A DNA stretch of 64,000 nt from Blasia pusilla. Lineage: Eukaryota. Below the pieces are notes generated by a model, which made no database searches, was not told where the DNA came from, and saw only the letters and a list, made by a program, of their open reading frames with translations. The stretch spans positions 48,794,001 to 48,858,000 of the forward strand of contig CM114271.1 of NCBI GenBank assembly GCA_050084515.1. The letters are read 5' to 3'. Numbering within the stretch: position 1 is the first letter of the stretch; the number at the start of each line of letters is the position of its first letter. Both the position numbers and the translations under genes were made by a program. This document shows, piece by piece, positions 17,978-62,675 of the stretch.

Positions 17978-18700
17978 TGGCACGCATAGTGATGCCATTT
18001 AGAGGGGGCGCCCATGGACGATTACCATGAGTTCTCCCACATATATGCCCAGGATCGAGATTGAGGCATGACGACTCTATTATGACCCACACTTTGTGTC
18101 ATGGACGGAGCCATTTCCATATGAGGAGGAGGAGTCAGGAGAGGCTACTTCCTCTTCCAATAGTGATATTTTAGGAGGGGTCACTCGCACTAGAGCAGTT
18201 GCATCGTCTAGTCAGGTTCGTCCCAGGTTCAATCCCATGGTTGAGTTCTTTGCTGAGTTGAGGGCGAGCTACCAAGGGGTACGAACGGAGAAGTTTCGGA
18301 GCATCCATGAATTCTAGAGGCGCCCAGGTGAGAGTTTGCGTGAGGCTTACACTCGCTTGCGCCGGTTGATCAATGTCACTCAGGGGATGACAGAGGCTTA
18401 GGCTATCCAGTCATGGTATGGGATGCTAGATCGGACCCTGCGGATATGGGTACGGGAGGGGGTGCTCCTTATGAACACCTCCCCTACGTTGAGAGATGTT
18501 TTTAGGACCGCCGAGAACATTGAGCGGAACATGGCGGAGGAGAGCATAGCCACCATGGGTTCTGGGCGAGAGCAATCACGATTGTCTGCACCACCAGTAC
18601 AGCAACGTGGACTCTGAGATAGGTTGACTGTGGCACCATGAGCTCAGGGAGGACACTAGGAGGCCGTGCCACAAAGACCTGCGCCTTCATATGGGGCTTA
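17978..18700 (+). mobile_element. 5' remnant of an LTR retrotransposon: PBS-like site plus decayed gag
   Basis: TGGCACGCATAGTG at 17978 follows ...TACA ctt (LTR end/PBS-like). The downstream frame reads ELRASYQGVRTEKFRSIHEF*RRPGESLREAYTRLRRL, resembling the retrotransposon gag major-homology region, with in-frame stops. Confidence 0.65.
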
Positions 18701-32872: not shown

Positions 32873-34202
32873 ATTTAATTGCGAATTCAGGATCTATAGT
32901 AGGGACCGTAATCAATGTTCACAAAATCCCACAAGCATGGGAATATTCAATCGATTTTTCATGGCCAAACTTATCACCCTTAGTCTCATGTACGTTCACA
33001 ATAGGAATATGGCATCTGAAGGGACGAGGCGCCATCACCCGCTAGGCTCCTGGCCAAAGCTGTAACGTCCAGGACTTTCTGTTCACCGTGAACCAGGAGG
33101 CCACCAGTGGCAAGCCTTATTGAAACTGAGCCTCTCTTTTGTCCAAGCATTGTCTCTCCGAAAGAGCAGGACGGACCGTCAGACGTCCTACTGTAATGGA
33201 CAGACGCATCACTTGTGCGATGATACGGACAACTTTAAATATATCCAGAAAATATGTCCACTTTGGATGGGATTGAACAGTATTAGTGACGCTGATGAAC
33301 TGACGCGTTATCATTCGCAAATCCCCAACGCTTTCTCCTGAAATCCGTGATTATTAGTACATTTCTCGATCGAATTCGGGTCGTCGGATGGCAGGAGGCG
33401 GATGATTTTTGAGCTCTCGTCCGTGGCCATGGGATTGCTCTCTAGACGCTTTTCCGCTTTTAATATTATCATGGTGGATGGCTGGTTCCCCGGATCCCAT
33501 CGGTTTTCAATTTCGCCTGCGCCTACTTTCTTCCCGGCTCTTGGAGTCTTTTTCAACGCATGCAATCAAGCAGTCAAGCAGCAGCCCACTGGGCAGTACA
33601 ACACCTTTTGGAGATGAGAGATTTGCAGGGCAAACCTTCCATTCATTAATACTATTATGCTCCGTCGAGGAACGTGGGGCAAGAATCGAACATTCCATGG
33701 AAGATTTTTCGGGTGATCGGATAAGTTCTGCGGTGTGGGTGGTGAATTCATAGCGACATGTCACGGTATAGGAACGGAATCACGGCAGATGACTGTCACA
33801 CGCGCTTGCTTCAAGATAATGTTTCGTCTTTTTTCTTTTTAAAAGGAAGAGGTGAGTGTAATGGATTGGCACCATTACGTACTTAAAAGGGAGCTTTGGA
33901 GTGTGATCTGCCAGATCAGAGCAGACCAGACGGGAACAGTCGTAGTGTGCTTCTCTGTTCTGCTCTGCAATACACCGTACCTTCAAAGCTGCGCGCTAGA
34001 CGATCTAGTCTTTAGGGAGTAGATCGTTGATAGGCTGCACCTGAAGCCCTCCGGGTTGAACAGCGCAGTTCACGATCTATCCAGGGTCGAGGGGCCAGCC
34101 ACCGAGGGTGTCAATTTGCACAAATTGAGAGCGTGTACAAGACCCTGCTGCCGAACTGTTCTTCCACACCTTCGCAAGCTGTGGAAATACAGTTTGAAAA
34201 GT

Positions 34203-37200
34203 ATGGAAACTCAGGAGACGGGACGAGGGAAGACGGTTTGTGTAACAGGAGCGGGCGGATTTTATGGCTCTTGGATGGTTTCCCAGCTCCTGGAGCGAGG
34301 CTATCATGTGCGAGGTACGGTGAGGCATCCAGGTACTGTAATTCTCTGCACGCTAAACCTTCGTTCTGTCCATCAATCTCTTCTTCACATCGTCCTGAAG
34401 TGGGATCCGGTGCTTGTCTAGAGGTGGTGAACGAACCCAGCTAGCTCTGGCTCCCGATTTCACCTGTGATTCAGTTTCGTTAAATACTCGTATGTCGTGT
34501 TGATGGCCGAATGACGAGATGGCATTTTACAAACTTCCGATTTTATCCTTGAGTGATGATAGTATGCTGGAAAAGTAGCTGTCGATTCTGACTTTACGGT
34601 AGGGCAGCTAAAGAAATGGCTATTTGTGGATTACTTTCCGAAAGATCAGTCAATTGCTGCTGAACGAACGGCTGGCTAGCCGTGACTTCCATGCAAATCG
34701 GTTGATTACCGATCGATGACTTTCCTTTAGCGTCTTCAATTGGTAAGTGGAGGCTAACTGTAAATGCGTTTGTTCTCAGAAAATGAGGAGAAAAATGGCC
34801 ACTTGTGGAAAATGAAGGGCGCCAACGAAAGGCTTCAGCTGTTTAAGGCCGACGTGTTGGACTACGATGCAGTCGCTCTTACCGTTGCAGGATGTGCTGG
34901 AGTCTTCCACACAGCGTGCCCCGTCGTTGTCGACATGGACGATCCTGAGGTGAGCTTCGCCGCTATGAACGGCTTTCAATGATGCTTCCAAATTAACTAT
35001 GCGAACCTCGTGTAATGTCTCTAAAAATTCGTGAGGTGTGAAGCTAAACCACACTCTTCTATCCAAATCAGTTTACTTCTACCTCGGGCTTTCTTTTGAA
35101 TTCGCTGTCTCCTAGTTCGTGGGTTTCCCATCGGTGGTCTTGTTCTGAGCTGTAGTCTGGCATCGAACAGAATTCATGTAGCTCTGCGGTATGATTTAAA
35201 GCTTTCATCCATAAATAGTCTCCAGGAAATTTGGAAACGAGTAGACAATGTGGGAAGTGAGAAGAGTTATCTTCATAATCGAATAACTCTATCGGCGAGA
35301 AAATTTTGGGCACCCATCTATTTGGAATCAGGAGATTGTGGACGTTTGGCTTACCTGAAACTTTGAGAGACGTGCTTTATTTTCCTGTGATATGAAAGCA
35401 GGAGGCTATGGTAAAACATGCATTCGAGGATCGATGAATTGGTACTTTTGATGAAGATTACTCACTAATCTCCTGAAGGTTGTTCTGTCTTCTGTTGCAG
35501 AAGGAGATGATTCAGCCCTGTGTCCAAGGAACCTTGAATGTCCTGAAAGCATCATTCAATGCAAAAGTAGGGCGAGTCATCTACACAGCAAGTATTCTCA
35601 CTATGATGTATAACAAAGAAAACGATGGCAAGCTATGTGATGAGACCTGCTGGTCTGATCCCGACTTCTATCAAAGCATTGGGGTATGTCCATCCACACC
35701 AGCTACCCAGTGCTGTCATCACTTTCATGGATTTTTATCTCCATGCTGGTGTTCAAGAAACTTTGGCACCACTTCATCCACTGAGGTTGAAATCCCCTTT
35801 TCTTGCACCTACCTTGGAAACGCAAGTGGCTTTTGGCTCCAAGTTAGCAGAAAGAAACCCCTTGTCTGTATTCTCTTCACGCACACAAGATGCACAATGC
35901 TGATCTGTAACAGACAGGACTCACAACTGACTCGCCAGACTCTTGCGGTCGCAGTACTGGTATTGTGTAGCAAAAGTACAAGCCGAGAGAGCAGCATGGA
36001 AATTTGCAGAGGAGAAAGGGTTGGATTTGATCTCCATTTCTCCAGCTACGACATTTGGACCCACGCTGCAGAAAGAGACGAACTTGAGCTCTGCTGCCAT
36101 GCTAAATGTCTTTTTAGGTGAGCGGACCTTCACACTTCCTGGCTTTAATGGTGGTAACAACAATATGTATGAATGTATTCATGAAGTAGTTACCAGCGGT
36201 TTGGACTGGGTTAGGTGGGGGTTGTCTGTTTGTGAGCTTCCAAGACTTGCTTAATCCATGGGAATTGGTAACCAATACACCACCTTTGACCTTCGATGAT
36301 TTTAGATCAAAGCTGTTCTTGGCCTTAACTTCTGAATGAATACGGCGTGTCGAAGAAGGCCATTAAAAGTGTGGAGTTAGATCGTATGGACATTGGGATA
36401 GCCCTGAGTAACTAGTTGTTGGATTACTGATTTTCTGACAGCCCACAGATATGTCTCTCCCTCTCTTCTGAGTTATATTGCTTACATCTTCTCTGGTTAT
36501 GATAATAAAAAAGAATGGACCCTACTTTATTGTTCCCTGCACAGGCTCATACATTGAATCTCATACAGCCGGCCCTTAAACAATCGGTAATGAATAAATT
36601 GACCTCTTACCCAAGGGGAACGAATGCCACACCAAGAAAGAACTGAGAAAAAGACGGAATGGTCGTCCAGAGTAAGTAACAATTCCTGATGTTCAATTGT
36701 AAAGATCAAACAACGATGTAGGAACGTCGCTGTGAGAATCTGGTTCCTCCTGGTCATGGAAGCACTCACATTGATGACAGGAAGCTTTGAAAGAAATCCT
36801 TTGTGTATTTCTCATGTTTGAGTTGTAATATCTGTCGATATTGTCGGACTTCCCTTTCTGTGACCAAAAACTGTTTCCGATTAAAGATTCCCGGCAATGT
36901 ACAGGGTCCCACGGGAGAACTCCCCGAACCCTGGCAGGAACCATAGTTGTTGAGGGGGAGAATGAAAAAGAAAGTAGAGAGCAAATGAATGATTTTCCCA
37001 ATGAAAAGTTGGAAATAAATTCCACATGGTCACCAGTGCTAGTCGGTGAATGGACTTCTTAATTGATTGAGATACCACGAGACGTCACTCAGCTATCCAG
37101 TGCAGCAAGGAATCTAGGTTATTGATGACGATACTTTTGGTGGTACTCGGTTGCCTATCGCGGCACAGGTTGATGCTTTTGGAGTGAATTTCGCAAAAGT

Positions 37201-43900: not shown

Positions 43901-45312
43901 CACAAAATTCCTTTGTGAGGAAGTTGTTGGAGATAGCCAAAATTTTCAATTAATCTTTCGGCAATGGGGAGAAAATTTTTAGCAAATGGCCTCCCATGAT
44001 ATGTTGGATTGGTGGAGTATCTTTTCAAATTAGATTAAAGGAGAGAATTGTACAAGATGGATTGAATCCAACTTTGAGAATAGATTGGTGACTAAATTTA
44101 TGAACCCGCTCAGGCTGAAATTGTTTGCCAACTTCTATGGAAATCTAAAAAGCACTTAGACGCTTCTTTGTTAATTTCATAACTCATACCAATATCCATG
44201 ACCAGATTCTTTAGAATGCTTCTCGCACGCTTTGTTAAATGTATGTTTTTTCAAGTTATTGGTACAGTATCATGCAAGGAAGACACATTAATAGATTCTT
44301 GACCCAATTGGTAACGTCCTTGGAATTGGTCTCCTTGAGGAAAAATTGAGTAGTTCCTTTTCAAACTCTCTTTGGCCTCAAAATCCTCACATGAGCCCAT
44401 TTTTCATAGTGGACTTCGTCATCGAGTGTTTAGCCATATGGTTGGGCTCATCCTTTGACATTGGTGGTGACGATGTTCTCTAGTGTCAACCTTGGATAAT
44501 TTGAGACACTATAAACATCTTCAATTGTCAAAAACAAGCTAGATGGCACATCATGAGGCAATGGGTGACAGCCTATGGTTCTTAAGTTAGGAAGAGGAGA
44601 TAGCCTTCATTGTTTTAATTTTGCCCACAAAGAACTATGATCCAGTCAGTTTTTTTTTAGTCTTGAAGAATGATTGTCCATATCACCATAGTGGATAGCT
44701 ACATTCTTGATCAATTTTGAAATTTTGAGCATCAAAATTTTTTCCCACTAACTTATTCTTCTAAGACTAATTTTTTTCAAATTTGGCAAATCCATTGAAA
44801 TGAGCCCAATTCCTCTTCCATTTTTTCTCATCCAGTATTTTTAGCAAGTTCACCATTTGCATAATTTGACACCTTTATCCTCACCTTCTAAAGCTCCTCT
44901 TGAAGAATATCTTATTTTGTGGTGATATTAAGATGCAACTTCAACATGGCATCGATGATTCCTTAGATCACCTTTTTCCTATCCACCTTTGTAGATTTTT
45001 TCCCTCTTGAGGTATCTCTAGACTTGTCCCTTTTACTATTACCGTCTTGGTTGCAAGGCTAATGTCTTTGTGAGGCATTATGTCCATCTTCAACAAAACT
45101 TATGTTATAGCCATAACCAAAAGCATAAGTTTAGGGTAGTAGAAAATAGCCCCATGAAAGTTTCTTCTACTAATTGTTCCAACATACTAATAGTGTTATA
45201 TCATACGTGCATTCATCATAAATCCAAAATAAATAACATGGATTCAAAATCAAACATATTATATAATTTTTTCTTTTGAAGTCTTATAACCGTGACTTGG
45301 CTTTAGAGGATA

Positions 45313-45472
45313 TGTCATACGCATGCACATCGCTACACAACATACATCGGTGTCACCGACCACACATACAAACACATACAAGACCATGCTAACTCATGGC
45401 ATCCAAACATCGAGACAATAAATATATCTCCAATAAATCAAGTAACACTCTCACAATGTCTCACATGGTGCA

Positions 45473-45550
<78 letters not shown>

Positions 45551-45955
45551 AACCCACTCTCCTAATGAGAGGTTTGGGTTACATACAAAAGGCAAGGAGG
45601 ACCATAACTATGTCGCCTCATGCCAAGAGGTTCAACAAAGAGAGATAAGCTCCCTCTATTTGGGTATACCCCCTTCCCTCTCCCAAGATCTCTCCACTAT
45701 TACCTATGATCATAGGTCATCTCCTTGGCTCTTGACTTCTTGTAAGAGTTCAAAGGCCACTTTCTAAAGTGGAAATTCAACTATGCACAAAATAGTAATT
45801 TACCCAAAATAGTAAGTTTCTATGTATGGCTCCAAATGAGCCGAAACAAAGGCAAAACCTGCTCTCTCAAGTTACCCGTGGCCTCAGCAAGTCACACTCG
45901 ACCTCCATGATGGCACTCTACTATATCTCATCGATCTATCCTAAAAGACGTGATA
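45313..45955 (-). mobile_element. Short composite remnant: partial LTR-like segment fused to a (CT)n-containing terminal segment
   Basis: 45313-45435 matches 45958-46085 and 57792-57905; 45435-45955 matches 60600-61149. Confidence 0.65.
45480..45546. repeat. (CT)n microsatellite
   Basis: Direct observation; a paralogous tract lies at 60644-60705 in the same repeat family. Confidence 0.97.
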
Positions 45956-45957
45956 TC

Positions 45958-46152
45958 TGTTATGCGCATACATATCGTTACACAACATACATCACTGTCA
46001 TCGATCACACACACAAACACACATGATCTCATGCTTACTCATGGCATCCAAACGTCGAGACGATAAGCACCAAAATATCTCCAATTGCCGCCCTAGCTCG
46101 TGGTTAGGTCCCTCTAACTCCATATAGCCATTTATCCCTAGCTACCATGACA
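45958..46152 (-). repeat. Candidate short (~195 bp) 3' LTR
   Basis: Bounded by TGTTATG...CATGACA (terminal inverted repeat, TG..CA); a homologous block lies at 57792-57977; no clear polypurine tract. Confidence 0.5.
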
Positions 46153-46269
46153 TGCATCTCTAGGATGCTAAGAGCAAAAAGGTCGGGTGCTCATGTGACC
46201 CCATCGTTATTCATCTTCTTGTCATCCATGTTATAGACACAAGTCAAAATCTATAACTACCTATATATT

Positions 46270-47661
46270 CTATGCACATCGAGGGCACATCCATCATCCT
46301 TGAGGAACCCTAGTGAGAAGGCATAGACATGCCATATGTCACCCTCTTCAACATCCATCATATACTAACATAGTGGCTGCACCACGGACGGAATCACACA
46401 ACATATATTGCAAGCTTATAGGAACTACTGCTAAGCTTGGAATAATTGTACTATCAATGTTAGGAAGGTGACATCGCCTACAGTTACGTTCATGGTCCTT
46501 CCAAACCATACCATCGCGTCCCTCCAATAAGAGAACACCAGATGGAAAAATACCATGCACTCTCTAAATGGTGCGCCCTCTACTCACATCCAACGTCATG
46601 GATGTTTTTTATTGCAAGTAGATGTAATCTCCTTGATGAAACCTCTAGATAGTTGCTCGATAATCACCTCTCCGAATAGTCGCATACCTCAAAGTATCTT
46701 GATGTTGCGCAATCGCCAAGTTCTCAAATGACATGGGCATCACTCTCCAAAATAACTCAGGCCTCTAAGAATAAGCTTGCATCCATACATCATGGTCATC
46801 AAAGTTCAACACCTCATCAGCATCTTGACGAACAGCCACAGGTTAATCTGGCTCTCGGCCATAAAGCAGCAAGTATGGTGAGAAAGACGCTAAGGATGCC
46901 TGCTTGTTGAATCTGTATCTCATCACCAACCATGGTAATTGGAGGTCCCAATCTCCTAGGTGACCTCTCTACAAGCCATACTTACGTAAACCTCTCTACT
47001 AGTCCATCCTCCTTAGGATGATCTCGATAGTGGTGCGGTGGTTAATCAATGCCTGATCATACAAGGCTTGAAACTCCCTGTGAAAATCCGTATCCTAGTG
47101 TGTCAACACCTTAGCTGGTACGCCATAATGACTCAGCACTAGATCTAGGAAGGCATACACTACTTCTTCACTCCCTTTGTGAAGAAATGCAACCAACTCT
47201 ATCCACTTCGAGAAGTGTTCAACCATCACCAACACATAGCAACTATGGCGCTCTATCAAAGGTAAAGGTCCTGCCAAATCCAAACTCCATCTATAGCCTA
47301 AACCTATGATCGGAAGTGGATGCAACTGTGGAGTCGGAGCATTGAAGAATGCCCAGACTCGATCACACACCATGCACCTCGTAACAAACTGCTCAACATT
47401 AGTCTGCATACCTCGCCACCAATACTCTTTCTAGAGCAAGTTGTACGTCCGCTTCACTCCAAAATGACCCAACTCCTTGTGGGCATGATGCACCAAACGT
47501 GCTCTCTGTAAAGGATGAGGCACTACACACACTCTACCATCCTCCCAAACTTGAAACACATGTGTTCCCTCCCACCAGAGTCGTTTGGCTTGCTCTAGGA
47601 TCCGATCCCGCTTTCTAGCATCCACTGTGCTTGCGACGCTACTAGTATGCAAGTACTCCAA
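46270..47661 (-). pseudogene. Gypsy integrase with C-terminal PHD finger (disrupted)
   Basis: HHAHKELGHFG and CMVC zinc-binding motif, WSLDLAGPLP...VEHFSKW core, then DHERNCRRCHLP and a decayed PHD; several stops and frameshifts. Confidence 0.9.
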
Positions 47662-47879
47662 GACTATTCCATCCTCGTGAATATCTTGGCTACCTCTCGT
47701 CTCCTCACTGGCCTTTGGATCTAAGGACCCTCCATCAACTTTGTCATCAAAGTCTTAGAAATTTGGCTTTCCATAGCCAACAAGCCCAAATAGGCTAACA
47801 CGTGCTATCCATGCACCAACTCCTCATCACTCTCTCCATGCCACCAAGCTCCAATCGCATCTTGCTGACTCGGGCATAG

Positions 47880-48492
47880 ATTACGACTCAACCCATCAAC
47901 ATCTTAGTGGAGCGTCCCAGATCGATGTACCATCTAGAAATCATACTCCTGAAAAAAGAAAGCCCAACTTGCAAGCTTCCCTATAAGCTTGTCGGACTCT
48001 ATCAAGCAGTTAAGTGGTTGATGATCAATGATCATGGTAAAGGGGTTTCCAAATAAATAACACGTGAAACGTGCGATAGCCCATATTGCAGCGAAGCACT
48101 CACCCTCATTCAAGCTATACTTTGCCTTTCTGGCGTCGTTCAAGGAACTAGCGTAAGTCACCATGAACTCTCTATCCTCATCGTCATACTGGGTGAGCAC
48201 GGCTCCAAGCCCCAACATGCTCCAATCTCTATGCAATTGGAAAGGACGCTCCTTGATCGGTCTCCTCAATATGGGCACGGACGTCAATCTATGCTTGAGC
48301 AGCTGAAATGCTCTCTCTGCTCATCCCCCCAGCGCCTCTCGTGATCCACCTTGGTCAACAAGGTTAGCGGCTTCGCAATCGAACTGAAACACTTGATGTA
48401 CCGTCCATAGAAGTTTGCCTATCCCATGAATGCACGAACTTGCCTCACATCTATAGGGCATGGAATGCATGAAATAGCCTCTACCTTCGTCT
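47880..48492 (-). pseudogene. RT C-terminus/connection and RNase H of gypsy pol
   Basis: KVEAI...VRAFMG*ANFYGRYIKCFSSIAKPLT, then DWSMLGLGAVLTQ...EGECFAAIWAI...DHQPL...QEYDF. Confidence 0.9.
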
Positions 48493-51400
48493 ACAAAGAC
48501 ACATCAAGGAGGATGTCGCAAAGAAAGTGGCCGAGGTACAAAGAAACTCTTCGGGATCAAAGCCCGGAGTGATCAAGTTAACAACAACATCACAAATTTG
48601 TGAACAACTGCTTGGAATCCCTGGGCAAGGCGAGATCACAACTTCTGAGGAGAAACAACTCTGGGAAAATCTCGCATTTCTCGCTGATCCTGAATGCTTT
48701 GGGAATTTGCTACGTCAAATACGGGTACTGGATGGAAAGACGGCCGAAATGGATGCCATTGCCAGAATCAAGGCCAACTCCAGATTTCCATTTATTCAAA
48801 GATAGCAATTCATGGGCCAGAGAGGCAAAGGATCCAGGGCTTATATCTTCAAAATGTCAACGATAGGGCCGTCGAGTGGCCTCGATCTTATAGATCGAAT
48901 GAGGGAAGGGGAAGATCTTTACGGCAGTTGGGTAAGCTTTGATATTTGCTACAGAGTGCTGGATGGATGGTTGACTATGGGTGCTCACCTTTATGACCAT
49001 GTGGAGAAGGGACAAAAACTATATTTGTCTGTGAGATAAAAGCAGAAGACATTGGCAGTTTGAAGATGTGTTGGTTAATCTTATTGGAGGTGGTGAAGGA
49101 AAACAAAAGGCCACCTCTGGAAATTTATGGATTCATGGCGGACAATGCACAACCTGGGTGGATTACTATCAAGGAAGTGTTCTCGGATGGAGAGGTTCAA
49201 CTAGAGAGGGAAAGGTTGGATGCTTTCCATTGGCAACAGTCTGTGACCCGGTGCACCAAATCTTGCATCAAGGAGAATAAGAGGACAGAGCATGTCAATC
49301 TACTCCAATGCTGCAAGGAGAGCAAAACCTTGAAACAGGCCATGGAGTGCCAAGAAGAACTACACGGGTGGTGGAGGAAGCATGCGATTGAGGGGAAGTA
49401 TAAAGAGTTGTGCTCTTGGCTCAGTTGGTGGACTGTACGAATGAGACAATGGGGAAACTTCATGCGGCAAGTGAGTTCAGTATTTTGTCGTGTCGAGCTC
49501 ATGCTGAGATTGTTTGAAAAGTTGCAACTCAAGTTAAGAAGCATGGGCACTATAGGGATTTCAAACTGAAGAAACCAAGCAATCCGTCGGATGCAACGGG
49601 TTGCCTGAGTGTGCAACCAGTCGGAAACCGACGGGTTGCATCAAGAATGTTTGTGTTTCCCGGCAAAGCGCGACATCATGCATGAGGAATATTTGTGCAA
49701 CCCGTCGGAACGGGACTGGTTGCATGACTGTGCAACATGTCGAATCTCGATGGGTTGCAAGTTGCATGTATACAAGGTCTGCAAATATTTCGACCCGGAT
49801 GGGTTGCAAGCCGCAAGATTGCGAGTTAACTCGGTCTGCAACCCGTCAGATTCTCACAACTTGCGTCTGTCTGCAACGTGTCGGATTCCGACCAATTGCG
49901 TCTGTATGCAACTCCTCGCATTCAGACATGTTGCGGAATCCGACAGGTTGCACAAGCATTTTCGAGACCGGACCGGCTTGCTTCTCACAACCCGTCCGAT
50001 TTTGACGGGTTGGAGTAGTAGGTTCTTGGGTCCTAGGTTGCAATAAAAGGTTATTGGGACATTCCAGGGATGTCTCCGACTTGCAACCCGTTTCAAGTCG
50101 AAGGCTGGAAAATCCATGTATGACCCGTCGGATTCTGATGATTTGCACTTGGATCTTCCAGCCCGGAGTGGCCAAAGTTACTTGCAACCCGTCTGAATCC
50201 GACGGGTTGCAGTAGGTGGTTCTTGGATGTTGCAACAAGTCGGAAACCAACCGGTCGCAGAGTCATTCATGGGATGCTTCCAACTTGCAACCCGTCTGGT
50301 TCTGACAGGTAGCTTTTTTCTTTGCTCATAGTGCTATTTTCGTTCCCTTCTCACATTGCCGTTGTTGCAGGGATTGAACATTCATGAAAATGCCCTCTGC
50401 CCCAACACAAGTGGATCAGAAAGTGTTCATTCCTCCTTGAGGTCGTCACAAGCATGCCAAAGAATTTCACTTTTGGAGGCATGCCAACAAGACCAGGCAA
50501 GAGCAATGCTACAGTCTGCAGCATCCCATATCTTTCTCACAAAATGCATAACAAAAGGAAGGGAGCCTTCAATTTACGAGCTCTATGTCAGGGCGGCTGT
50601 GAGATCTGGTGCTGAAAAACTCTATGTGGAAGCCTTCAATTGGTGCATAGCAGGAACTACCCTTGAGCAAGATTTCCACATTGGTGGGGACATTCGTGGG
50701 CGTGTTAAAAGACGTCCCATACATATGGTGATAGACCAGTCCGAGCGAGACTCGTGGAGACCAGATAAGTATCTTAACTTCAGGCAAGTGAAGAGGAAAA
50801 ATCGAGGAACAAACTTGGTGATTGATTTGGATGAAGAAATTACACGTCCCAGGTATTTAGAGACGCCGGATTGCTCCCAAATCCGTGATGCAGTAACCTC
50901 TCCAAAATCACTGAATGTTTTATTTCAAAAAAATCCTCCGTTGTTGGAAGTTTGCAACATCCGGTCTTTGGGGTGGTTCAACAGTATGGGATTCCGGTCA
51001 TTGAGGTGGATTGCAACCTCAAAAGGTGGCATATATCTCGGAGCAACCTTGGACGTGGATCCACTTGTAGGGCAGAATCTGATGGCATTAGGAGAGCATG
51101 CGGCACTTTCCTAAATAAGAACTGGACGACCACTGCTTGGATTTTGGGGACTCAAAACCTTTGATCGTTTCACGAGGACCGGGGATCAATTGAAGTACTT
51201 CTTCTGCCCAAATGAATCTTGCGCTTTTCAAAAGTCTTATCCGGCTGCCATTGGAGCTCTAGGGAATACCCCCACGATTTGGCCCATTGCCGCAAGTACG
51301 AATTGCACTCAGGACGAAGTGGACAATCTTACAAGTGTTGGTTTCATACTCATAGACGGAGGAAGTTCGGAGCATGTTCGCATTACAGAGACCTTTGCAT

Positions 51401-52300
51401 TTCGTATTCAACCCAAGATTGATTTCAACATGTATCTAAAGAAGGTGGATGATCTCAATCCACTATTTTTGTTTGAGTGTAGAAATGGGGTGAAGAGAAA
51501 CAAAATGTGTAAGCCGACGGTGGAGAGAGCAAAGCAAATTGCATCAGCTCAAGAGGCAAACATGGAAATCATTGCCACAAAAGATGTCCAGAGTAGCAAT
51601 GGAATAGGAAGGATGTATTGGGTCAGGAACAACACTGTCAATTCAAGTGTCATAGGGGTGTATGTGGTGCACATATGTTGCTTTCCCACATGTTCCTATG
51701 ATGACTTTGTCCAAAGAGAGACAAGTGGGAAAAGAGATTTCCCTTGTAAGCACTTGTACTATGTGTTGCTTGTAGTTTTAAGAGAGTTGGAGCTAGGAGT
51801 AGGAATCCACCAACCAATTATATCCCTCAAAGAAGTACAAAGTATTTTAAACAAACCAGTTTGAGGATGAAAAATGAGATCTTAGATTGTACTTTCATTT
51901 GCCAGAACCTTCACTTTGAGCTTGAATGATACATTTTTTCCAAACCTTGGATGGAAAAAGTGATTTGTTCCACATTTATGATTCCACTAATTTTTCAGTT
52001 TTTTAAATTTCATGCAAATTGCAACCCGTCGGATTCAGATGGGTTGCCAAAATGTGGAAGAGGAAAAAAAATCTGTGGGAGTGCCTAAGCACTGAGAACA
52101 AAAGTGCAAAAAAATTCACAAAAAAGTTTCCTCTCTTCAACCCAACAGAAACTCTCTTCAAATCACAGGAAACTCTCTTCAAAGAAAAGTATCTCTTTGG
52201 GTTAAAGGTAGTTTCCTCTCTCCTCTCTTCCTCTCTCCTCTCTCCTCTCTTCCTCTCTCCTCTCTCCTCTCTTTCTCTCCTCTTACCGCTCCTCTCTCCT
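48493..52300 (+). mobile_element. 5'-truncated MULE-like transposase/SWIM fragment occupying the RT position
   Basis: WVSFDICYR, GFMADNAQPGWITIKEVF...DAFHWQQS, NTSGSESVHSS and SWIM-like PTCSYDDF...PCKHLYYV; intron ~49471 (GTGAGT) to 50370 (TTGCAG); stops present; no TIR or TSD visible. Confidence 0.75.
49580..50315. repeat. Array of ~15 degenerate 29-bp palindromes, consensus TGCAACCCGTCGGA-N-TCCGACGGGTTGCA
   Basis: For example 50183-50211 TGCAACCCGTCTGAATCCGACGGGTTGCA; copies are separated by variable spacers; an isolated copy lies at 52020-52048. Confidence 0.9.
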
Positions 52301-52479
52301 TGTGTACCTGCAAAACATCCCAAGAAGTCCAAGGATGTCTCTCTGGGTCTCCCTTGGTGTGTCGATCTCCTCGGGTCTCGCCCCCAGCCACTGCCTCCAC
52401 AGTCTTGGTAGGCATGGGGCTCACCAATGCAACCGCTGTGATCTGTCGCGATCTCATCCGACGCTGCTCAGCCACTCCC

Positions 52480-53430
52480 AAGCTGAAGATCCATGTCAAG
52501 CAGTTCAAGTCCATTGCTTGACCCAAGACATGGCGTCGTGATGCCTCTGACACTGATGGTACTGCCGTTACTCCTGTGGGAAATCCCATTGCCCACTCTC
52601 TCTTGTCGGCGTTGGGCTTCACCGACCTGTGAACCTGGTCATCCCAAACCAAGCCAGGACCGGCCTCCTTATATGCATAGGAAGCGGGAAAACTCACAAA
52701 CGTGGAAAAGGCTGCCCGCGGCCAGCCTACCCTGTTGACCACAATCAACACCGGTCGATCGTCGTGTCTCACTGCTTGTGATCGACGACCCGGATCTTGA
52801 ATGAAATTCACTAACAAGTGGGAGGGACTCTCCACTCTCGTATACGCCCTCCGCAACACCTCGTGTGGTACCATGTTGGTCGACCATAGACGCGGGAGAT
52901 GTGCTCGAGAACCCACACTCGCCCCATCCAAAACTAATGCTAGGCCGATCCAAGAACCCACCTGATGTGTACTTGTCACCACCCGTGACCTCGAATCGCC
53001 CAAGATCGGTACATTCTCCAGAATGTAAGCCGGTGAACGGGAGTGATGCTCCTGCAAATATCTCAAGACCCTCAACATCTCCCAAAATAACTTGGATCGA
53101 GTGTTAGCCAACCCGATGCCTCGTCTAGCACTTGATTGACCTTGACATGGCCAACCTGCAATGACCAAATCAATGGTCCCTACCCACTCCAATACCTGCG
53201 CCCCTAGCAACAAAATATCCCTCGGTAGGGAACTTTGGTACCCCTCTACCGCGGACGCAGACAACAAGTTGGGAAAACATAGGCGTAACTGTGCCACATG
53301 TCATAGTGAGACGCGCCTTGCAACATCATCATTCTCCATATATAGGTACTGCTGCACTCGCACTCTTGGTTGCAAAACAACAGCTAACCCGGTGCTAATC
53401 CCTCCAAAGAGATCTAACACCTGAATAACC
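52480..53430 (-). pseudogene. C5 cytosine DNA methyltransferase domain (Dnmt3/DRM-like appearance) within retrotransposon pol
   Basis: Motif I VLDLFGGISTG (53420), II YMEND, IV DLVIAGWPCQG (catalytic Cys at 53145-53147), VI YILENV, VIII RAHLPRLWSTN, IX REWAMGFP, X LGQAMD, all in one frame with a single TGA at 53301-53303. Confidence 0.92.
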
Positions 53431-53849
53431 TCCTCCGGAATACGCCACACAATGGGTGTGGTATCCAAGGGTGTCATTGTAGTACTCCCTGCTACCTCGG
53501 GTTCCTCAGACTTGTCACGCTCCGATGCAAACGCCTGGCTCCACGCGGTTTACACCTGCTCATCTTCCAATCGTCGAAGCTCCTCAATCAAGCCCCACAG
53601 CGGCACCTCTCCTCCACGGAATGATGCGGCTACCATAACACTCCTCTCCATAGAAACCTCAGGAATGGGAGTATCCTCTGCATAATCATGTTCCTCAATC
53701 AAATCACTAGGCCAAGTGATGGCACTACTAAATGCTGCTAAGGTCGCCACCTCTCCTGGCCGTCGCTCGATCACTATACCTGTGAATCGAACAAGTAATG
53801 AGCTAAGGCGCCCATCGCCTCACTGCCATCCTAATCTGTTGGACGCTGA

Positions 53850-55340
53850 CTCCTCCGAATAATCCAGGGAAAACCCCATCGGGTATAACACTGCTCCACC
53901 AACCAAGACGTCGTAGGACTCTGCATCAATCATTATCGCCTTGGCTCGCACCGCGGACTCATCTGTAGGATGTCCAAGGCGAATCTTCACCACGACCTGT
54001 TGTCGGGTGATATACTATGTGCTCCTTGCTCCACCCAAAGATATCTGTATCCGAAATGGACAACGCTCCACATTGGCTCTCATCAAGCCCAATCCTCTGA
54101 ATGACACTTTCCCCAACATCAGGGGTTGCGCTCCTAAATCCAACAAGACGCGTTGCGGACTAAAAGCTCTACCTCCGGGACTCACCAAGTGGAAGACCTC
54201 TCCTTGGTTACCCAGCAACACAACACTAGGAGAAGCCATGGCACACTCTATCGCGGGTCTAGCGGGCATCTCCGCCATCCTAGCAGCCGCAGCCTGCCAT
54301 GAATATGACGTGGACGGCCGGAGCATCCGCTCTAAGGGCAGGTCCATCACCTCCTCTGCAATCACCTCTAAACATGATACAAGAACTCCAACTCCGTAGT
54401 GACATAGTGAAGCGGCCAACCAAAAAGCCTCAGCGGGCGTACCCCCCAACGTCATAACATCGGAAGAAAAAAATTAAGGAGTGCGGTACACAACAGTGGC
54501 CGCCCCCAACAACGTGCTCGACACATGCCCCTCCTAAGTATCAAAAATAGGAGTCATGGCACTCGCTTCTCCCATCGCCTTCCGTGCGTGTACACCAACA
54601 ATATCACCAACTCTCCAAGAACTTTGATGAGGAACCATTGATGGGGTCCTCATCGCTTCGGACAACGAGAAAGATTGAGGAAGCCTAGTTTGTTTTCTGG
54701 CTTCCCCTCGCTGTGGATCCAACTCTGCGGTTGCTCCACGCATCACATCTATGACGGCCTCTATTTGGACAATCCCGCACATCCAACCAGGATCCTCCAT
54801 ATCTCTGGCTGCTCCATATGATGTCGATGCCACGGATCCGGCATCAGGTAACCTCAATGCCATAGTGAAAATCTGCTGCTATAGCTGCTGTATCTGAGCA
54901 GCCATCCTAGCCTCACATCCAACGTCTCCCTCGGTGCGTCTAGATGGTGGTACTCTACCTCCTCCACGGGCAGCTCCACCACCCTATCGGGAAACTCCAG
55001 CTCCTCGTCCCCCAACGGGACCACTTGGTGCACGATCTCTAGGCCCACCCGGACCGGCTACTTGCTCTAGTGCCCTCTCTGGCCTTGGGTCCAGACATAA
55101 CTCAGGATGTAAACTGAAACACATGGTGCGTGTATGACCATACCTTTGACAATAGTACACTGATAACCTCTTGGTGCAGCACCATCTCCTCCTCCATACT
55201 AAGGCACAAGTCCGTGACCCTGATGAGTGCAATCGCACTGATGATGGGCTCCACCAAATGACCAACAAGTAATAGTAGGCGGTTGTTGCTGAGCGGCATA
55301 TGAAGGTCCATGATTATTGAGTCTAGGAAGTCCATATTAA
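53850..55340 (-). pseudogene. gag C-terminus and aspartic protease of the methyltransferase-bearing element
   Basis: Zinc knuckle YCQRYGHTRTMCFSLHPEL (~55110-55165), RVLLDLGAQPLMLG and YDVLVGGAVL; frameshifted. Confidence 0.75.
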
Positions 55341-57791
55341 GTGGAAGTCAAGAGTCCAAGTTTAGGTATGTTTGAGTTGTCAACATATCATTGAGTTGTC
55401 AAGACTAGACACCGCCGATCCTAGACTTGCGCATTGCATGCTAAAAGGGCTTCCCGGCACACAATATTGCTAATGCGAGTTAGCAAGGGACCAAATTAAG
55501 TGAGCGGGCCGCTAACTCATACCACCGCTAAAGGACCCTCCAGGGTCCAAAGTTATATAAGGGCACAAGGCATGGGTGGCTAGGGAATATGCCCCCACGG
55601 GGACTAATCACAAAGTTGGCCCATGGGTAGCTAAGACATTGCCCGTGGATATACAACTTGAGTCAGACTACAGTGTGGACTCGTCCTCGTCTAGATGGCC
55701 CATGAGACGCTTATATCACAAACCATGAGTTTTCCAGCCATCCAATGGCGCCACAAGCCAAGAGGCTTGAACAAGTTTAATGCACTATGAAAAGTAGAAG
55801 AGGTATGAATGCAGGATTTTTGGGGTGCTACTTCTCATACTGGAAGATTGAGCCCATGTTGAGTGCGACTCATGGAACTAGAGAGGAACGGAGTGCAAGG
55901 CACCAAAGGCCCGGGGCGTCAAGGGTGCTCCTAGAAACTACCAACATGGCATAGAATGTCAAGGGGTGGGGTCACAACACTTTCGATAACTGCTAAGAGG
56001 GGCATGTGGTGCCAAGGGACAAGGAAGGTTGGAGCATTGGCGATCAAGGGGCACATGGAAAACACCAAGGTACGCGCGGAGCACCCGCATCCACAATGTC
56101 CAAAGCAAACACCAAGGGGGTGGGCCAGGTCATCAAGGTGCCCATGGCAGTGCCAAGGGGGCGCAAAGCCCCAAGAGTTCCCATGGCACACCAAGTGATT
56201 GCCAAGGGGCATTGCGCTATGTGCTCTTCGCGTCGAAAGCAGCTGCCATGAGGATCCTAAGTCAGGCATAAGGTTCCAAGAGGTAGATCGCTCATGGGAA
56301 TCGCTAAGGAGACTTGACACTAAGCGCTAAGGGCAAGTGTATTGACGCTATCGGCGTCTATGGCATCCACCAAGTGAAAGCAGTGCCAAGCAGAGGACGC
56401 CAAGGAATGAGGCATGGCCCCGCTCGTGATAAAAAAAAAAATTATATATATATATATATATATATAATGGGAGAGTGCCTTCTTGATTTGCAAACACCTC
56501 TCTCCTTGACACGTGGTGATTGGACAACAATAGAATATTTCACATGCTACGGGCAGCAAGAAAACAAATTTGCAATATCATTAATCTCCTCCCTTCACGG
56601 GCTATACACTAGCTCTTCAAACACTTTTTTTTATTTCCCTTCAATTGCTTGTGCACCTTATGTATATTATTTTGGGAGAGTGCCTTTTTTATTTGCAAAC
56701 ATCTCTATGCTTGATACGTGGCAACACGGCAAGAAAATGTTTCACATGCTATAAGCACAGAAAAAAATGAATTTGTTTATAGCATATACTTGTGTTAAAC
56801 ATAAGAAATTATGAAATTTTGTAAGAAAAAAAACGTTCAAATTTGAATGTTAAATAAATATAAAATATATATTCTGGAAAATGCCCAAAAAAACACTTCA
56901 ATTATGAAAGATAACTTTATATGTTATGCCTAACTTACTTAATTTTTAAGGGTTTTTTCATTCTACCACAAATTTCCTCATCCTTAAGATAGGGAAATCT
57001 ATTTTTTATTTTGAAATATAAGAAGATCATTTATTGAGAATTAATTGGGATAAATTTCTTTAAAAAACCACTCAAAACTTCCCTAAAATTTCTGAACACA
57101 TATAATAATAGGAAGAAGAATTAGAACTAAAATTTGGCTAAAAAACATATAGCTCCAAAAAGAAAAAACCAAAATTATATATTTAAAAAATATTTTTGAT
57201 ATGCATGAATGCATGCAAACTTTGTAATAATTTTTCCCACCAAAAATTTCCCTAGCCTTAAGTTGGTACAATCTTCAAAAAAATTATTTAGATTAATCTA
57301 TGGTTTAAAATGAATAAATCGAGATTATGTGTAAATTCCTATACCAATCCTTCCCTCAAAATCTTGAACTTAGATTGTTATAGAAAGAAGAATAAGGAAT
57401 GTTAGTCAATTACAAAATTGAACCCCCAAAATTCAAGGAAAAACATGGAAGTTGACTATGTACGTAATTTTTTTATCCTTGTGGATAAAATGAAAATGCA
57501 CCCTCTTTCCTTATAAGGTCTTATCGTGTGGGTCTAAAAAGATATATTGATATTCAGGCTTTAGGTTGGACTACTATTTTCCTTCAAATTTTTTCAAGTT
57601 AGATATTCAACCGTCAACAAGTAGATAAAAGTTCAGGTCAAGTTATAGACTTGGATAAAATGAAAAATGCCCACCACCTTTTTCACCAACAAGTATGTAG
57701 AGTATTACAATTATACACTAATTCCTCTCTCATGTGACATTGTCCAATTGGGGTTCATTTGTTCCTTCGGTTTGTCTTTTTGTCTCTTCTA

Positions 57792-60637
57792 TGTTGTGCG
57801 CATACACATCGCTATCACCAAATACACAAAAAAAATACACAAGATACCATACTAACTCATGACATCTAAACATCAATGACAATCGAGAACCAAAATCTCT
57901 CCCATCGCCTGGGGCCCCTAGCTATTGGTTATGTCCCTCTAACTCCAGATAACCATCTATCCCTACCTACCATGACATACATATCTATGACGCTATGAAC
58001 AAAGATGTGAGGTGCTCGTGTGGCTCCGATCCATTGTTAGTTGCCTTCTTGTCATCCATGTTAGAGACCTAAGTCAAAATATAGAACTACCTAAGATCTA
58101 CTCTTTGTACATGTGGGGCACATCCATCGTCCATGATAAACCCTAACGAGAAGTGGCATTAAACATGCCATATGCCATCCTCTCGAACACCCATTGCAGA
58201 CTAGCATAGTGGCTACATCACGCACAGAATCACACAACATACAACGCAAGCCTGCATGAACTACTACTAAGCTCGGATCAACTCTCCCGTCAATGTTAGG
58301 AAGGTGACATGATGCACAATTACGCACATGGTCCTTCCAAACCATACCATTGCATCCCTACAAATAAAGAACATCAGATGGCAAGACATCTCGCACTCTC
58401 AAGATGGTGCGCCCTATGGGCACATCTAGCGTTGTAGGTGCCATATGTTGCAAGGAGACATAGTCTCCCCGATGAAATGTCCGGATAGTCGGCCGATATT
58501 CTACATCCAGAAATACACAAAATGGTAAGCTTGCTCAGGAAGTAGGTCTTCATGTACACAATCAAATGGATCCAAACTCCTGATCCACATACTCTTGCGT
58601 TCTTTTCTTGTCCACTTGGAATTCTCACGAAGTTACCTTCCAATGTGCAGGTAAAGACAATACCTCTGTCAATTGACAAAATCATTGTTATGTGCTGAAT
58701 GTAAGCGTCATAGGGGTAGGAGTACAATTCATTGGCACCGCGCAATTTTTCCTTTTGAAGTTTCTGCATCAAAATCATGGGAACTGGGCAAAATTGATCT
58801 GACAATAGGGAAAGATCGCCGCACATGGTAAAAGACTTGCTTGCTTCCCGGAACAGTGATCTCGTCTTTTTGAGTTCAATTGATGCCGCCAGTGCCACGG
58901 GGTGGAGGGTCTTGAAACGATGGAGGCAATGGTCATAAAGGGATCCATCGCAGCTGCTGACGCTCCAATGTCATGAGCGTTTGCGTCCCACATGCTGACA
59001 AAAACACGTCCGGAAACTCAGGAAACGAGTGGCCATAGCCATGCGGGTTAATTGTAATAAGATTCACAATAATACTCTAATCATTCTTAGGAGGAACCGG
59101 GTATCCGGCTCCCATTACCAAAACTTAGCCATTGACAGTAGTCTCTTGAAGACTGCTCAGAGTTTGGAGAGGTAGGAAGTTTATTGTGAAGAATCGTCCG
59201 ATCATGAGTTGTGGAAAAATCTTTGCCAATAAGTATCATTGCTGTCGCATGAACCTGGCATCGAGCACAGGGGTGAACACCTCTGAGCAAGATCTGAGTT
59301 AGGGACGTTGCTGCAACCATGGATGAGCCCCAGGAGAGTAAGAAACTCCTGAAATTACCTTTGAAAATTTTCACTCACGGCTTGCGATTAGAATTTGCTG
59401 GCCACACTTCTCCGCCTAGTACGTGTAATCAATTTTTCTTGCCAGCCTCCTCCGCTTATAGTTGCTACAATTTCGGACCCCATTTCGACTCCAGCGCCTC
59501 CACACGCTCCATTCCACTTGCTCCACCGTCAGAACAGTAGCTCTCCCATCTCGAAAGTAGACTCTACATTTCTCGACTCTAAAGAATGATCAAAGGCTAC
59601 GAGGTGTCGGGCTCCCTCTGGAAGACGCAATTTAGCACATACAAGTGAAGGGACACCTAGCAAGAAAATCAAATCAAATCATCCACAAACACTTAACCAA
59701 TGGAGCTGGGGTACCGCACAAGTCCAGAATAGAGTCCCCATAAAATAGATAGATTTTAAGAAAGGCTTCACTTCTTATAGACATTTCTTTTGCTTCTTTT
59801 TCCTTTCCCCATATAGTAATCCCCCCATGTTTCAATAAGAGTATAGATTCTCCTGACCATTTGGATCCTCCATCATTAGTTGCCTTCTTGTCATCCATCT
59901 TAGAGACATAAGTCGGAATCTATAACTACCTAGTATCTACTCTATGTACATTTGGGGCACATCCATCGTCCCCGAGAAACCCTAACGAGACATGGCATTA
60001 AACATGCCATATGCCACCCTCTCGAACACCCATTGCAAAGTAGCATAGTGGCTACATCACGCACAAAATCACACAACATACAACGCAAGCCTGCATGAAC
60101 TACTACTAAGCTCGGATCAACTCTCCCGTCAATGTTAGGAAGGTGACATGACGCACAATTACGCACATGGTCCTTCCAAACCATACCATTGCATCCCTCC
60201 AAATAGAGAACATCAGATGGCAAGACATCTCGCACTCTCAAGATGGTGCGCCCTACGGGCACATCTAACGTTGTTGGTGCCATTTGTTGCAAAGAGACAT
60301 AGTCTCCCTGATCAAACCTCAAGATAGTCGGTCGATAATCACCTCCTCGCATACCTAAAAGTATCCCAATGATGCGCAATTGCTAAGTTCTCAAACGTCA
60401 TGGGCATAACTCTCCGAAATAACTCAACCCTTCAAGAACATGCTCTCTTCTTGCGAAAAAATTGGCAACGCTTCCACACTTCCACAGATCTTGCTCCCGT
60501 GAGCCATTGAACAAGGAACACGGTCTCCAACGTGCAACCACATTGAGAAACCAGCAAGCTTCCGCATTGAAGAGCTCTCAATCTCTCATTCTCTCTTTGT
60601 AAATCAAGGTTCTCTCAAGAAGCTCTCTCAATGTGCA

Positions 60638-60708
<71 letters not shown>

Positions 60709-61149
60709 GAGAGGCTTGGATTAATCAAAGGCAAGGAGGACCATAACTCCGCCACCTCATGCTAAGAGGTTCAACAAAGAGAGAATAAGCTCCAATGATC
60801 TCTCCCCTTGGCTATACCCCTTCCCCTCTCCCAAGCTCTCTCCACGGTAACATATGCTCATAAGTCACCTCCTTGGCTTTTGAGTCTTGACCTTCTGTAG
60901 GGGGTCAAGGGCCATTTCTCAAAGTGGAAAGGAAGCTCTACTCAAAACTATAATTTACCCAAAATAGTAAGTTTCTCTATAAAATTCCAAACGAGCCAAA
61001 AAAAGGGGAAACTGCTCTCATAGGTTACGTGTGGCCTCAAAGGTAATTTATGGCCTCAGTAGGTCATCCTCGATCTAGTGAGGCTGTCCTCCACTATCCT
61101 TGAAGGCGCTCGACTATAAACTCGTCGATCCATCCTAAAAGACGTGACA
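57792..61149 (-). mobile_element. Non-autonomous derivative of the same gypsy family: two integrase-tail/PHD copies around unrelated DNA
   Basis: TGT...ACA termini flanked by TCTA on both sides; the joined flanks match an uninterrupted paralog at ~62025-62145; PHD ORFs at 58091-58345 and 59942-60379 (CMLC...CNGCSRGWHMACL...WMCPKC). Confidence 0.75.
60644..60705. repeat. (CT)n microsatellite
   Basis: Direct observation. Confidence 0.97.
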
Positions 61150-62675
61150 TCTACTCTCTATAACGTAGAAAGAAAGAAAGAAAATGATATGGGTCATCCC
61201 CTTGGGCCATCATATATTGGTTTATCGGATCATTTGTGAGGTTTTTCTATTTTTTGAAAATGGATACTATACTTAAAGACTTTGGAAAGTAAAGTGGAAT
61301 TATTATATTAATATTTTCGAAAGTGAAGATGAGGGAATTAAGTCACTTAGTACTGCAAATATACATAATCAGAAAAACATGAAAATTTAATTTTAATCTC
61401 CTACACATCCAATATATGCTATTCCTCAATGATTTTTCATTATAACCACATTTAACATACCTCTTCACATCTCTAAAATAGTGGACTCCTCTTACACTTG
61501 GCCATCACAATGTCTAGTTTGTCTCAATTCTGGAATTTTGACCGTGTTTTAGGAGTTTTGGAATGAAAGTTTCCGGATTTTGATGGCGTTAATATCCATG
61601 AGTGCTTACGAGATTATTAAACTTTGGATTCCTGACCATTTGCATCCTCCTACAATTACCGCACATACACTTTCATCAACCCATATGCCTTTTCTACTAG
61701 GACTCGTGACTAGTGTCCTTTCTGCCATACCCTTAGACAATACCCATTAAGATCTAAAACTCGTGTCACATCGGTGTGCCTTACACTGCTATTGTCCAAT
61801 TAAGTGAATATTCTCCGTCCCCTTTGTTTATCGGTTATCTTAAAAAAACCACACTTCAAGAATGTAATAAGGTGGATTGATGGTCAAGGCTTCCCTTCCC
61901 AAAAGTGTCTTCTTCCACGAAGAATGTTGGAGTGCCCATTCATGGCCACCACATCCCTCAAATACGACATTCATCCCATAGAATCTTGCAATTATAGAGC
62001 ATGACAATTATGCACTAATTGCTCTCTCATGCGACACCGTCCTATCGGGTTTCGTTTGTTCCTTCGTGTCGTCCTTTCGTCTCTACTTCTCTATGAAACG
62101 TAGAAAAAGAAAGAAAGGAAAGGGAAAGGGAATGGGTCGTCGCCCAGCCCCGCCCCTAATCGTTATAGATCTATAATTATTGATAGACCTCTAGGGGTCT
62201 ATCGATATTAATAAAGGGTAGGATGGTCCGCTGGCGGAGTTCTGGCACGTGTAAAACCATCGCAAAGTACAAACGCATAACACGTGTCGAAAATTGCACT
62301 TGAACCCCGGATGTGTAATTGTCACTTTTATTCGGAATTCTTTATTCTAATCACATTTGGTACTTCTTAAGGGAAATCACAAGAAAGTATTGGAGAACAT
62401 AGCATCCACTTATAGTTTACTCCCATTTACATGCCCCACATTCTAATGTTGGTGTCAAATGGCACTTACAACGCCTGGTATGCCTTTCTAATAGAAATAC
62501 TAGTAATGAAAGCTTGCGTCTTGCTCTAACTTTAAACCTTCCCGGAGTTGTAGCCTTAAATATTCATGTAACACATATTCGAAATCCACCCACCTAGGCA
62601 TGTTTTGAATAATCGATAAAATGCCACTCAAACGTCGATGCGAAGCCATCCATCATTCTAGGAACATGTAATGCA

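Follow-up and report, generated by a model that had tools for sequence, protein, structure and literature searches.

The 64-kb stretch of eukaryotic DNA analyzed here (hereafter, the window) carries three copies of a PHD finger, all on the minus strand, and each of them follows, in frame, the C-terminal SH3-like region of a Ty3/gypsy integrase. The element to which they belong is, judging from its coding sequence and its repeats, a relative of the published KnitGypsy-Dnmt3/Gypsy-DNMT3 family, whose members encode a DNA methyltransferase (DNMT). The explanation that we favor, and consider reasonably probable, is that these fingers constitute the C-terminal integrase module of a Gypsy-DNMT3 element of green plants and algae and that this module is a histone H3 tail reader that guides integration. 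The three copies in the window are dead fragments, none of which is able to function, whereas in intact relatives the PHD finger is under purifying selection.

Three PHD fingers fused to integrase remnants

The finger of copy C terminates a minus-strand open reading frame (ORF) of 146 residues (59942-60382), in which a C4HC3 pattern (59945-60082) is directly followed by the stop codon (59942-59944). The order of recognizable segments in this ORF is GDYVSLQQ...TLDV...GRTILRV...LEG...KDHVRNCASCHLP...CMLC-x11-CNGC-x4-H-x2-C-x14-CPKC-stop, and the Pfam model for PHD (PF00628, curated cut-off of 24 bits) matches residues 101-145 with 28.6 bits. The finger of copy B (58109-58243, within the ORF 58091-58357, stop codon at 58091-58093) scores 32.8 bits against the same model. 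Both fingers have the ligand spacing C-x2-C-x11-C-x2-C-x4-H-x2-C-x14-C-x2-C with all eight zinc ligands present. A regular-expression scan for this spacing in all six frames of the window returned only the sites of copies B and C, and nothing in 100 shuffles; thus, a chance origin of the pattern is excluded. The finger of copy A (46276-46407) has decayed: Cys has been replaced by Tyr at two of its zinc ligands, its frame contains three stops, and one codon has been lost. A KDH(V/E)RNCxxCHLP motif is present in all three copies (60137-60172 in copy C), and the Pro, Cys, and Leu of its "PCHLP" portion are nearly invariant in the 39 aligned relatives in which residue conservation was assessed. 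The first-pass annotation of this DNA, made from the letters alone, had described two intact C4HC3 patterns, one decayed copy, and an upstream DHxRNCxxCHLP motif, and it was correct on all of these points. Copies B and C are intact in their zinc ligands only; otherwise they are truncated pseudogene fragments, in which the family-conserved "PPL" and "VPxG" have drifted to MPCLVRVSRG (copy C) and MPLLVRVYHG (copy B).

In copy C, the integrase C-terminal SH3-like region (60083-60444) shares the ORF of the finger up to 60382, and residues 872-900 and 901-1034 of the second ORF of an intact relative (L048, see below) are matched in two frames, which places a frameshift near 60350. In copy B, the corresponding region (58244-58501) is truncated at 58501 and interrupted by an in-frame stop (58358-58360) just upstream of the finger.

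The integrase-PHD fusion is conserved in relatives

When the 146-residue ORF of copy C was used as a query for homologues, 16 of the 16 longer database proteins that matched it carried PF00628. Ten of the 16 also contained the integrase core (rve), and three showed the arrangement RNase H-integrase-PHD, two of them together with reverse transcriptase (RT); the named matches were gene models of Marchantia polymorpha and Sphagnum fallax. A HMMER profile scan of 1.84 billion representatives yielded 2174 clusters at E ≤ 1e-3 and 532 at E ≤ 1e-10. A metagenome scan produced 455 candidate stretches, 371 of which were confirmed as relatives, and 80 loci (labelled with L-numbers) were retained. The PF00628 scores of the fingers of intact relatives range from 25.9 to 50.4 bits.

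In intact metagenome relatives, as in the Marchantia and Sphagnum gene models, RT, RNase H (RH), integrase (IN), and PHD form one open frame of ~1040 residues. Locus L048 has a first ORF of 1369 residues (gag, protease [PR], and DNMT), a TAG codon, and then, in the same frame, a second ORF of 1047 residues (RT-RH-IN-PHD); locus L044 has the same junction of ORF1, stop, and ORF2, and both loci are intact or nearly so. The IN-PHD frame is also open in L042 and L054. The expectation that the finger would be in frame with the integrase in intact copies is therefore borne out. The ratio of nonsynonymous to synonymous substitution (dN/dS) for the finger is 0.06 between L048 and L044 (pN 0.077, pS 0.636) and 0.13 between L044 and L042. 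The whole of ORF2 behaves similarly, with ratios of 0.06 and 0.08 for the same two pairs.

The PHD finger travels with a DNMT3-like methyltransferase

To follow the methyltransferase, we constructed a DNMT profile from the DNMT ORF of the window and its matches. In the 36 of the 80 loci that extend at least 4.2 kb upstream of the PHD finger, DNMT was found upstream on the same strand in 31, mostly at a distance of 3.78 kb from the finger. Among 150 listed representatives, 20 proteins are at least 1600 residues long (one of them is annotated as "pol [Scenedesmus sp. PABB004]"), and all 20 consist of RT-RH, a spacer of ~650 residues, and then IN-PHD. The DNMT profile matches every one of these spacers (E = 7e-13 to 4e-119), whereas Pfam sees DNMT in six of the 20 at 1e-4. 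Two further proteins, P0045 and P0081, in which PHD is preceded by more than 750 residues, contain no DNMT; both represent the window's type, where DNMT lies in the preceding frame. The best relatives of known structure for the methyltransferase are DNMT3A, DNMT3B, and DNMT3C (1.7e-7). The finger and the enzyme are thus not distributed independently of each other: 31 of the 36 loci and all 20 long polyproteins have both.

Two gene orders can be distinguished. In the window's branch, to which gene models from bryophytes and metagenome contigs of moss- or liverwort-like character belong, the order is gag-PR-DNMT, a UAG codon, and RT-RH-IN-PHD; in the algal-type branch, it is RT-RH-DNMT-IN-PHD in a single frame. 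The UAG is found at 5083-5085 in L048 (context UAG-CAG-UUA) and at 4661-4663 in L044 (context UAG-CAA-UCA), and both contexts fit the leaky-stop motif of plant-virus readthrough, UAG-CAR-YYA. By this likeness, the pol products of the window's branch may be made by readthrough of the UAG. The proposal that a single polyprotein supplies both a histone reader and a DNA methylation writer consequently holds for the algal type; in the window's branch, an in-frame UAG separates the two domains, and readthrough would be needed to join them.

The same annotation likened this pairing to the ADD domain and catalytic domain of animal DNMT3. The ADD domain of DNMT3 reads unmodified H3K4. The parallel stands insofar as here, too, a catalytic domain of the DNMT3 type travels with a zinc-finger reader that resembles H3K4me0 binders. 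It does not extend to the architecture: the reader is a single canonical C4HC3 PHD finger that is not adjacent to the enzyme, and in the window's branch a stop codon, RT, RNase H, and integrase lie between the two. ADD_DNMT3, which combines a GATA-like finger with an atypical PHD, gave no Pfam match in the ORFs of the window, whose domain scan was reported to E ≤ 1, and only one C4HC3 unit is present.

In algal-type proteins, the PHD finger is followed by ~300 conserved residues (P0059 residues 185-485; also P0040, P0070, P0116, P0166, and others). The window's branch does not have this tail. A structural model of the tail (pLDDT 81) begins with a small beta-barrel, which is followed by a class I methyltransferase fold; this fold comes closest to N6-adenine and rRNA adenine methyltransferases, with matches to KsgA/Dim1/Erm (Z 11-12) and M.TaqI (Z 10.4). 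Weak Pfam matches to D12 adenine methyltransferases were obtained in two of eight proteins, and a search of a protein atlas gave only sub-threshold leads (score 0.85). The tail contains a DPxxGxG-like motif and a variable (S/A)PP(F)-like motif, which some members keep in an SPPF-like form. Going by the modeled fold, the polyprotein may include a second methyltransferase in this tail.

The finger resembles readers of the unmodified H3 tail

A profile search of the Protein Data Bank (PDB) with the integrase C-terminus and PHD matched CHD4 PHD2, KMT2C/D, KDM5B PHD1, KDM5A PHD1, PHF12, ATXR5, and DPF2/3, and further PHF21A (BHC80), WSTF, KAT6A/B, UHRF1, AIRE, and BAZ2A/B; the best single stretch was that of KDM5B PHD1 (50.5 bits). 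The AlphaFold2 (AF2) model of residues 880-1047 of L048, which cover the SH3-like region and PHD, has a mean pLDDT of 82 and shows an SH3-like barrel, then the PHD finger. The finger alone superposes on BHC80, ATXR5 bound to H3, BAZ2A with unmodified H3K4, UHRF1 with unmodified H3, and DPF3 with root mean square deviations (rmsd) of 0.7-1.4 A and 36-49% identity; for example, the values are 1.3 A and 43% for BHC80 and 0.9 A and 44% for ATXR5 with H3. Among the 39 aligned relatives, a Trp located two residues before the seventh ligand is invariant. The residue two positions before the ligand His, presumably the site of the cage Trp in PHD fingers that read H3K4me3, is Gly, Ala, or Ser in every one of the 39 and aromatic in none. 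From these similarities in sequence and predicted structure, we infer that the finger is a predicted reader of the unmethylated H3 tail (H3K4me0 type).

Alternative explanations and the proposed mechanism

According to the explanation that we favor, the PHD finger would bind the N-terminal tail of H3 when lysine 4 is unmethylated, and this binding would tether the integration complex to nucleosomes outside active promoters, much as the chromodomain does in chromoviruses. Integration would thereby be steered away from H3K4-methylated chromatin and promoters, and the element's own methyltransferase would then methylate the cDNA or the new copy, so that reader and writer would travel in one element. 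In the window's branch, reader and writer would be made as two proteins, except where readthrough of the stop yields a fusion that escapes cleavage. Because the PHD finger has been retained on the integrase and is always paired with a DNA methyltransferase in intact relatives, chromatin state probably guides where the element lands. Several observations weigh against this explanation. DNMT was not detected upstream of the finger in five of the 36 loci (L041, L056, L066, L069, and L078); since gag and protease matches are also missing there, we read these loci as 5'-truncated, but they may be true DNMT-less elements. In the more distant of the pairs used for dN/dS, the synonymous sites are almost saturated. 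Copies A, B, and C are broken, and thus they permit no statement on the activity of the element in its host genome. The H3K4me0 assignment is drawn from the likeness of the finger to a class of PHD fingers. Finally, "unmodified K4" may describe the target too narrowly, since DPF and UHRF1 fingers recognize K14 acylation and R2, which are different features of the tail.

That the finger is a selected appendage of the integrase but does not read H3 to select targets is possible, although we would not expect it to be the answer: its partner could instead be a host factor, nucleic acid, or a product of the element itself (DNMT or capsid), or the finger could serve nuclear import or stability. PHD fingers are versatile, and the H3 tail is a predicted partner in this case. 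In algal relatives, where the beta-barrel and methyltransferase-like fold follow the finger, it possibly acts as an internal scaffold; moreover, matches to the whole model (PHF1, MTF2, and the UHRF1 Tudor-PHD) have rmsd values of 14-16 A, so that domain placement is uninformative. On the other hand, the closest relatives of the finger in sequence and structure are all binders of the histone H3 tail, and its position copies that of the chromodomain in chromoviruses. A reader of H3K4me3, which would steer integration to active promoters, like some DNA transposons and the Ty-like elements found at gene starts, is a very unlikely alternative. Many PHD fingers do read H3K4me3, and the structural matches include one entry of a UHRF1 PHD bound to an H3K4me3 peptide (3sow); however, fingers of the ING, BPTF, and TAF3 type are absent from the best 60 sequence matches, the presumed position of the cage Trp is never aromatic in the relatives, and the best structural matches have titles such as "unmodified H3K4" and "unmodified H3 N-terminal tail." All of the copies in the window are fragments amid transposon debris, and the fingers might on that account be taken for pieces of a host PHD gene or for a chance cysteine pattern beside unrelated integrase remnants. 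This view has practically nothing left in its favor and can be regarded as refuted, as the ORF of copy C links integrase C-terminus and PHD without interruption, the same junction recurs in the 371 metagenome stretches and in open 1047-residue frames, and the shuffled sequences never produced the pattern.

A bolder extension of the H3-reader explanation, which we hold to be doubtful, is that this retrotransposon clade, widespread in the green lineage, carries a portable epigenetic kit. In this scenario, the reader of unmodified H3 on the integrase and the DNMT3-like writer would act together, the element landing in H3K4-unmethylated chromatin and methylating itself on arrival, as a mobile counterpart of the ADD-methyltransferase logic of DNMT3. 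Algal members, in which DNMT, integrase, and PHD may remain linked in one protein, would add an amino-methyltransferase-like domain behind the PHD.

Relationship to known elements

KnitGypsy-Dnmt3 of Klebsormidium nitens has been described, in the legends to figures 1e and 4c of the original report, as a DNMT3-bearing Gypsy element with DIRS-like repeats in the arrangement A-coding-B-A-B (de Mendoza et al. 2018, PMC5890265), and the name "Gypsy-DNMT3" is used for a streptophyte group in a recent preprint (bioRxiv 10.64898/2026.05.21.726589). The full A-coding-B-A-B arrangement is found in two of our metagenome loci, with A upstream of gag and B-A-B after PHD (L038:1676-2017 and 10238-10805; L045:1768-2074 and 10378-10971), and the B-A-B end is seen in L031 (8838-9434) and in copy A of the window, where the 5' end is missing. 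In copy A, the 3' terminal repeats occupy 45310-46066 on the minus strand (B1 45955-46066, A 45434-45958, B2 45310-45421). Repeat B is ~113 nucleotides (nt) long, and repeat A is ~340 nt in the loci and ~525 nt in the window; these are not ordinary long terminal repeats. In the 9.3-kb contig of L048, no long terminal repeat was found, its ends being joined only by a 23-nt match. As the A-coding-B-A-B arrangement is that of K. nitens, we place the element with the published Gypsy-DNMT3 family. Its integrase is that of a Ty3/gypsy element, with H2C2, a DDE core, an SH3-like C-terminal domain, and the order RT-RNase H-IN (in copy A and the intact relatives), and a DNMT3-related C5 methyltransferase is located within the element on the same strand as RT, RNase H, and integrase.

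KnitGypsy-Dnmt3 shares with our element the Gypsy domain set, a DNMT3-related methyltransferase in the coding region, the A-coding-B-A-B repeats, and conservation of the key DNMT motifs. The two differ in that DNMT is described as lying inside the Pol ORF of KnitGypsy-Dnmt3, whereas in the window's branch it precedes RT, in the frame of gag and protease, and is followed by UAG in both intact relatives. The K. nitens style of DNMT inside the Pol ORF was observed in algal-type relatives and not in the window's branch. The text, the legends, and three supplements of PMC5890265 make no mention of a PHD finger (figure 4c and the largest supplement were outside this check), and the terms "PHD," "PF00628," "Marchantia," and "KnitGypsy" are absent from those three supplements. 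Likewise, the portions of the literature on DNMT-carrying Gypsy elements that we searched contained no description of the PHD-DNMT pairing or of the bryophyte gene order.

Chromoviruses are Ty3/gypsy elements with a chromodomain at the integrase C-terminus, as cited in PMC6673714 and bioRxiv 10.64898/2026.05.21.726589. As the earlier annotation had it, the PHD finger occupies the position of that chromodomain, directly after the SH3-like C-terminal domain of the integrase, and the two kinds of element have in common a histone-reader domain at this place and a presumed chromatin-guided integration. They differ in that our element has a PHD finger, not a chromodomain, and the mark that it would read is likely the unmodified H3 tail, not H3K9 methylation. 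Pfam scans of three ORFs of the window (E ≤ 1) and of 37 related proteins listed no Chromo domain, which sets the element apart from chromoviruses.

PHD fingers in Gypsy polyproteins and other transposons are already known in general. The relevant sections of the published reports describe Gypsy-7a_cRei of Chlamydomonas, a PHD-bearing Gypsy element (PMC9940879), other PHD-bearing transposons (PMC8557442; PMC6673714; Ginger1-9_HM in PMC2836005), and a survey of PHD and Chromo fusions to transposons (bioRxiv 10.1101/2021.11.30.470311). In these cases, as in ours, PHD is found inside a Gypsy Gag-Pol polyprotein or a Gypsy-integrase-like transposase, and the authors propose an insertion bias; unlike in ours, no methyltransferase is reported in the sections consulted.

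The discovery of retrotransposons with a DNA methyltransferase of their own is recent and puzzling. The present analysis adds that the DNMT3-carrying Gypsy clade also bears a conserved and selected putative histone-reader finger on its integrase. The finger lends itself to peptide-binding assays and the enzyme, independently, to methylation assays in yeast. What the bryophyte branch contributes is a distinct gene order and a stop codon that appears leaky, and its abundance in Marchantia gene models provides a model plant with chromatin maps for tests of insertion sites. The window itself adds little: its copies are dead and serve only to place the family in another bryophyte-like genome.

Structure and decay of the copies in the window

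Copy A, the 3' portion of a Ty3/gypsy element on the minus strand, is the only place in the window where DNMT and PHD occur together; copies B and C are without DNMT. Its gag (CCHC)-protease-DNMT3-like region (52182-55220) keeps a single frame with eight in-frame stops, and the DNMT motifs I (FGGISTG), IV (PCQ), and VI (ENV) are retained; the ORF 52182-53300 matches PF00145 with E = 7.3e-9. The C-terminal part of RT and RNase H follow at 47760-48538 (RT_RNaseH, 87.9 bits), and then the integrase with H2C2, DDE core, and C-terminal domain at 46408-47742, which lies in one frame and has Pfam matches to rve and Integrase_H2C2. The combined frame of integrase and PHD (46270-47742) contains 13 premature stops. 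A foreign insert of ~3.7 kb with plus-strand ORFs (48540-52300) sits between DNMT and RT and removes the N-terminal part of RT. No similarity of this insert to any of the 80 related loci was found, and its plus-strand ORFs have no Pfam match; one of them (50332-51864) has one internal stop and a terminal CxC...CxH motif that is SWIM-finger-like. A search with blastn (word size 7) found no 5' terminal repeat for copy A, and there is no similarity to the gag N-terminus upstream of 55220; we therefore read copy A as 5'-truncated.

Copies B (57806-58501) and C (59870-60444) comprise only the integrase C-terminal region and PHD. They are 92% identical to each other over 472 base pairs (bp), and each is 76-77% identical to copy A. 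A tandem duplication, considered for B and C because of their spacing of 1839 bp, was ruled out, as the stretch that they share is only 472 bp long. Downstream of copy B in the element sense, a 3' untranslated stretch and a copy of repeat B were identified by repeat matching (57790-58090, minus strand): 57806-58132 matches 45989-46299, and 57790-57883 matches the B repeats. In copy C, similarity to the integrase stops at 60444, and the remainder of the element is missing. A minus-strand copy of repeat A is located 5' of it in the element sense (60600-61152; 76% identical to 45434-45886, with 61101-61152 matching 45908-45958). Since this repeat lies only 155 bp upstream, copy C looks like an internally deleted element, resembling the deletion derivatives found in three metagenome loci. 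In these (L009:9005-10405, L018, and L020), DNMT is within 1-1.6 kb of the integrase C-terminus and PHD, and RT and RNase H have been lost.

Repeat A contains (CT)n microsatellites at both of its places in the window (45459-45548 and 60624-60705), which indicates that the simple repeat travels with the terminal repeat of the element.

Other features of the window

Another element of the same DNMT family is represented by a gag N-terminal fragment on the plus strand (17936-18608), which shares 44-50% identity with the N-terminal ends of the Marchantia gene models; a weak integrase-like stretch near it (16239-16820, minus strand) is unrelated. An inverted pair of 1.2-kb repeats (21292-22474 and 31447-32637), 84% identical and ~9 kb apart, is surrounded by shorter matches. 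Host genes with introns are present at 5213-8470 (minus strand) and 34023-36251 (plus strand), where we recognized exons of a carotenoid cleavage oxygenase (RPE65 family) and an NAD-dependent epimerase/dehydratase.

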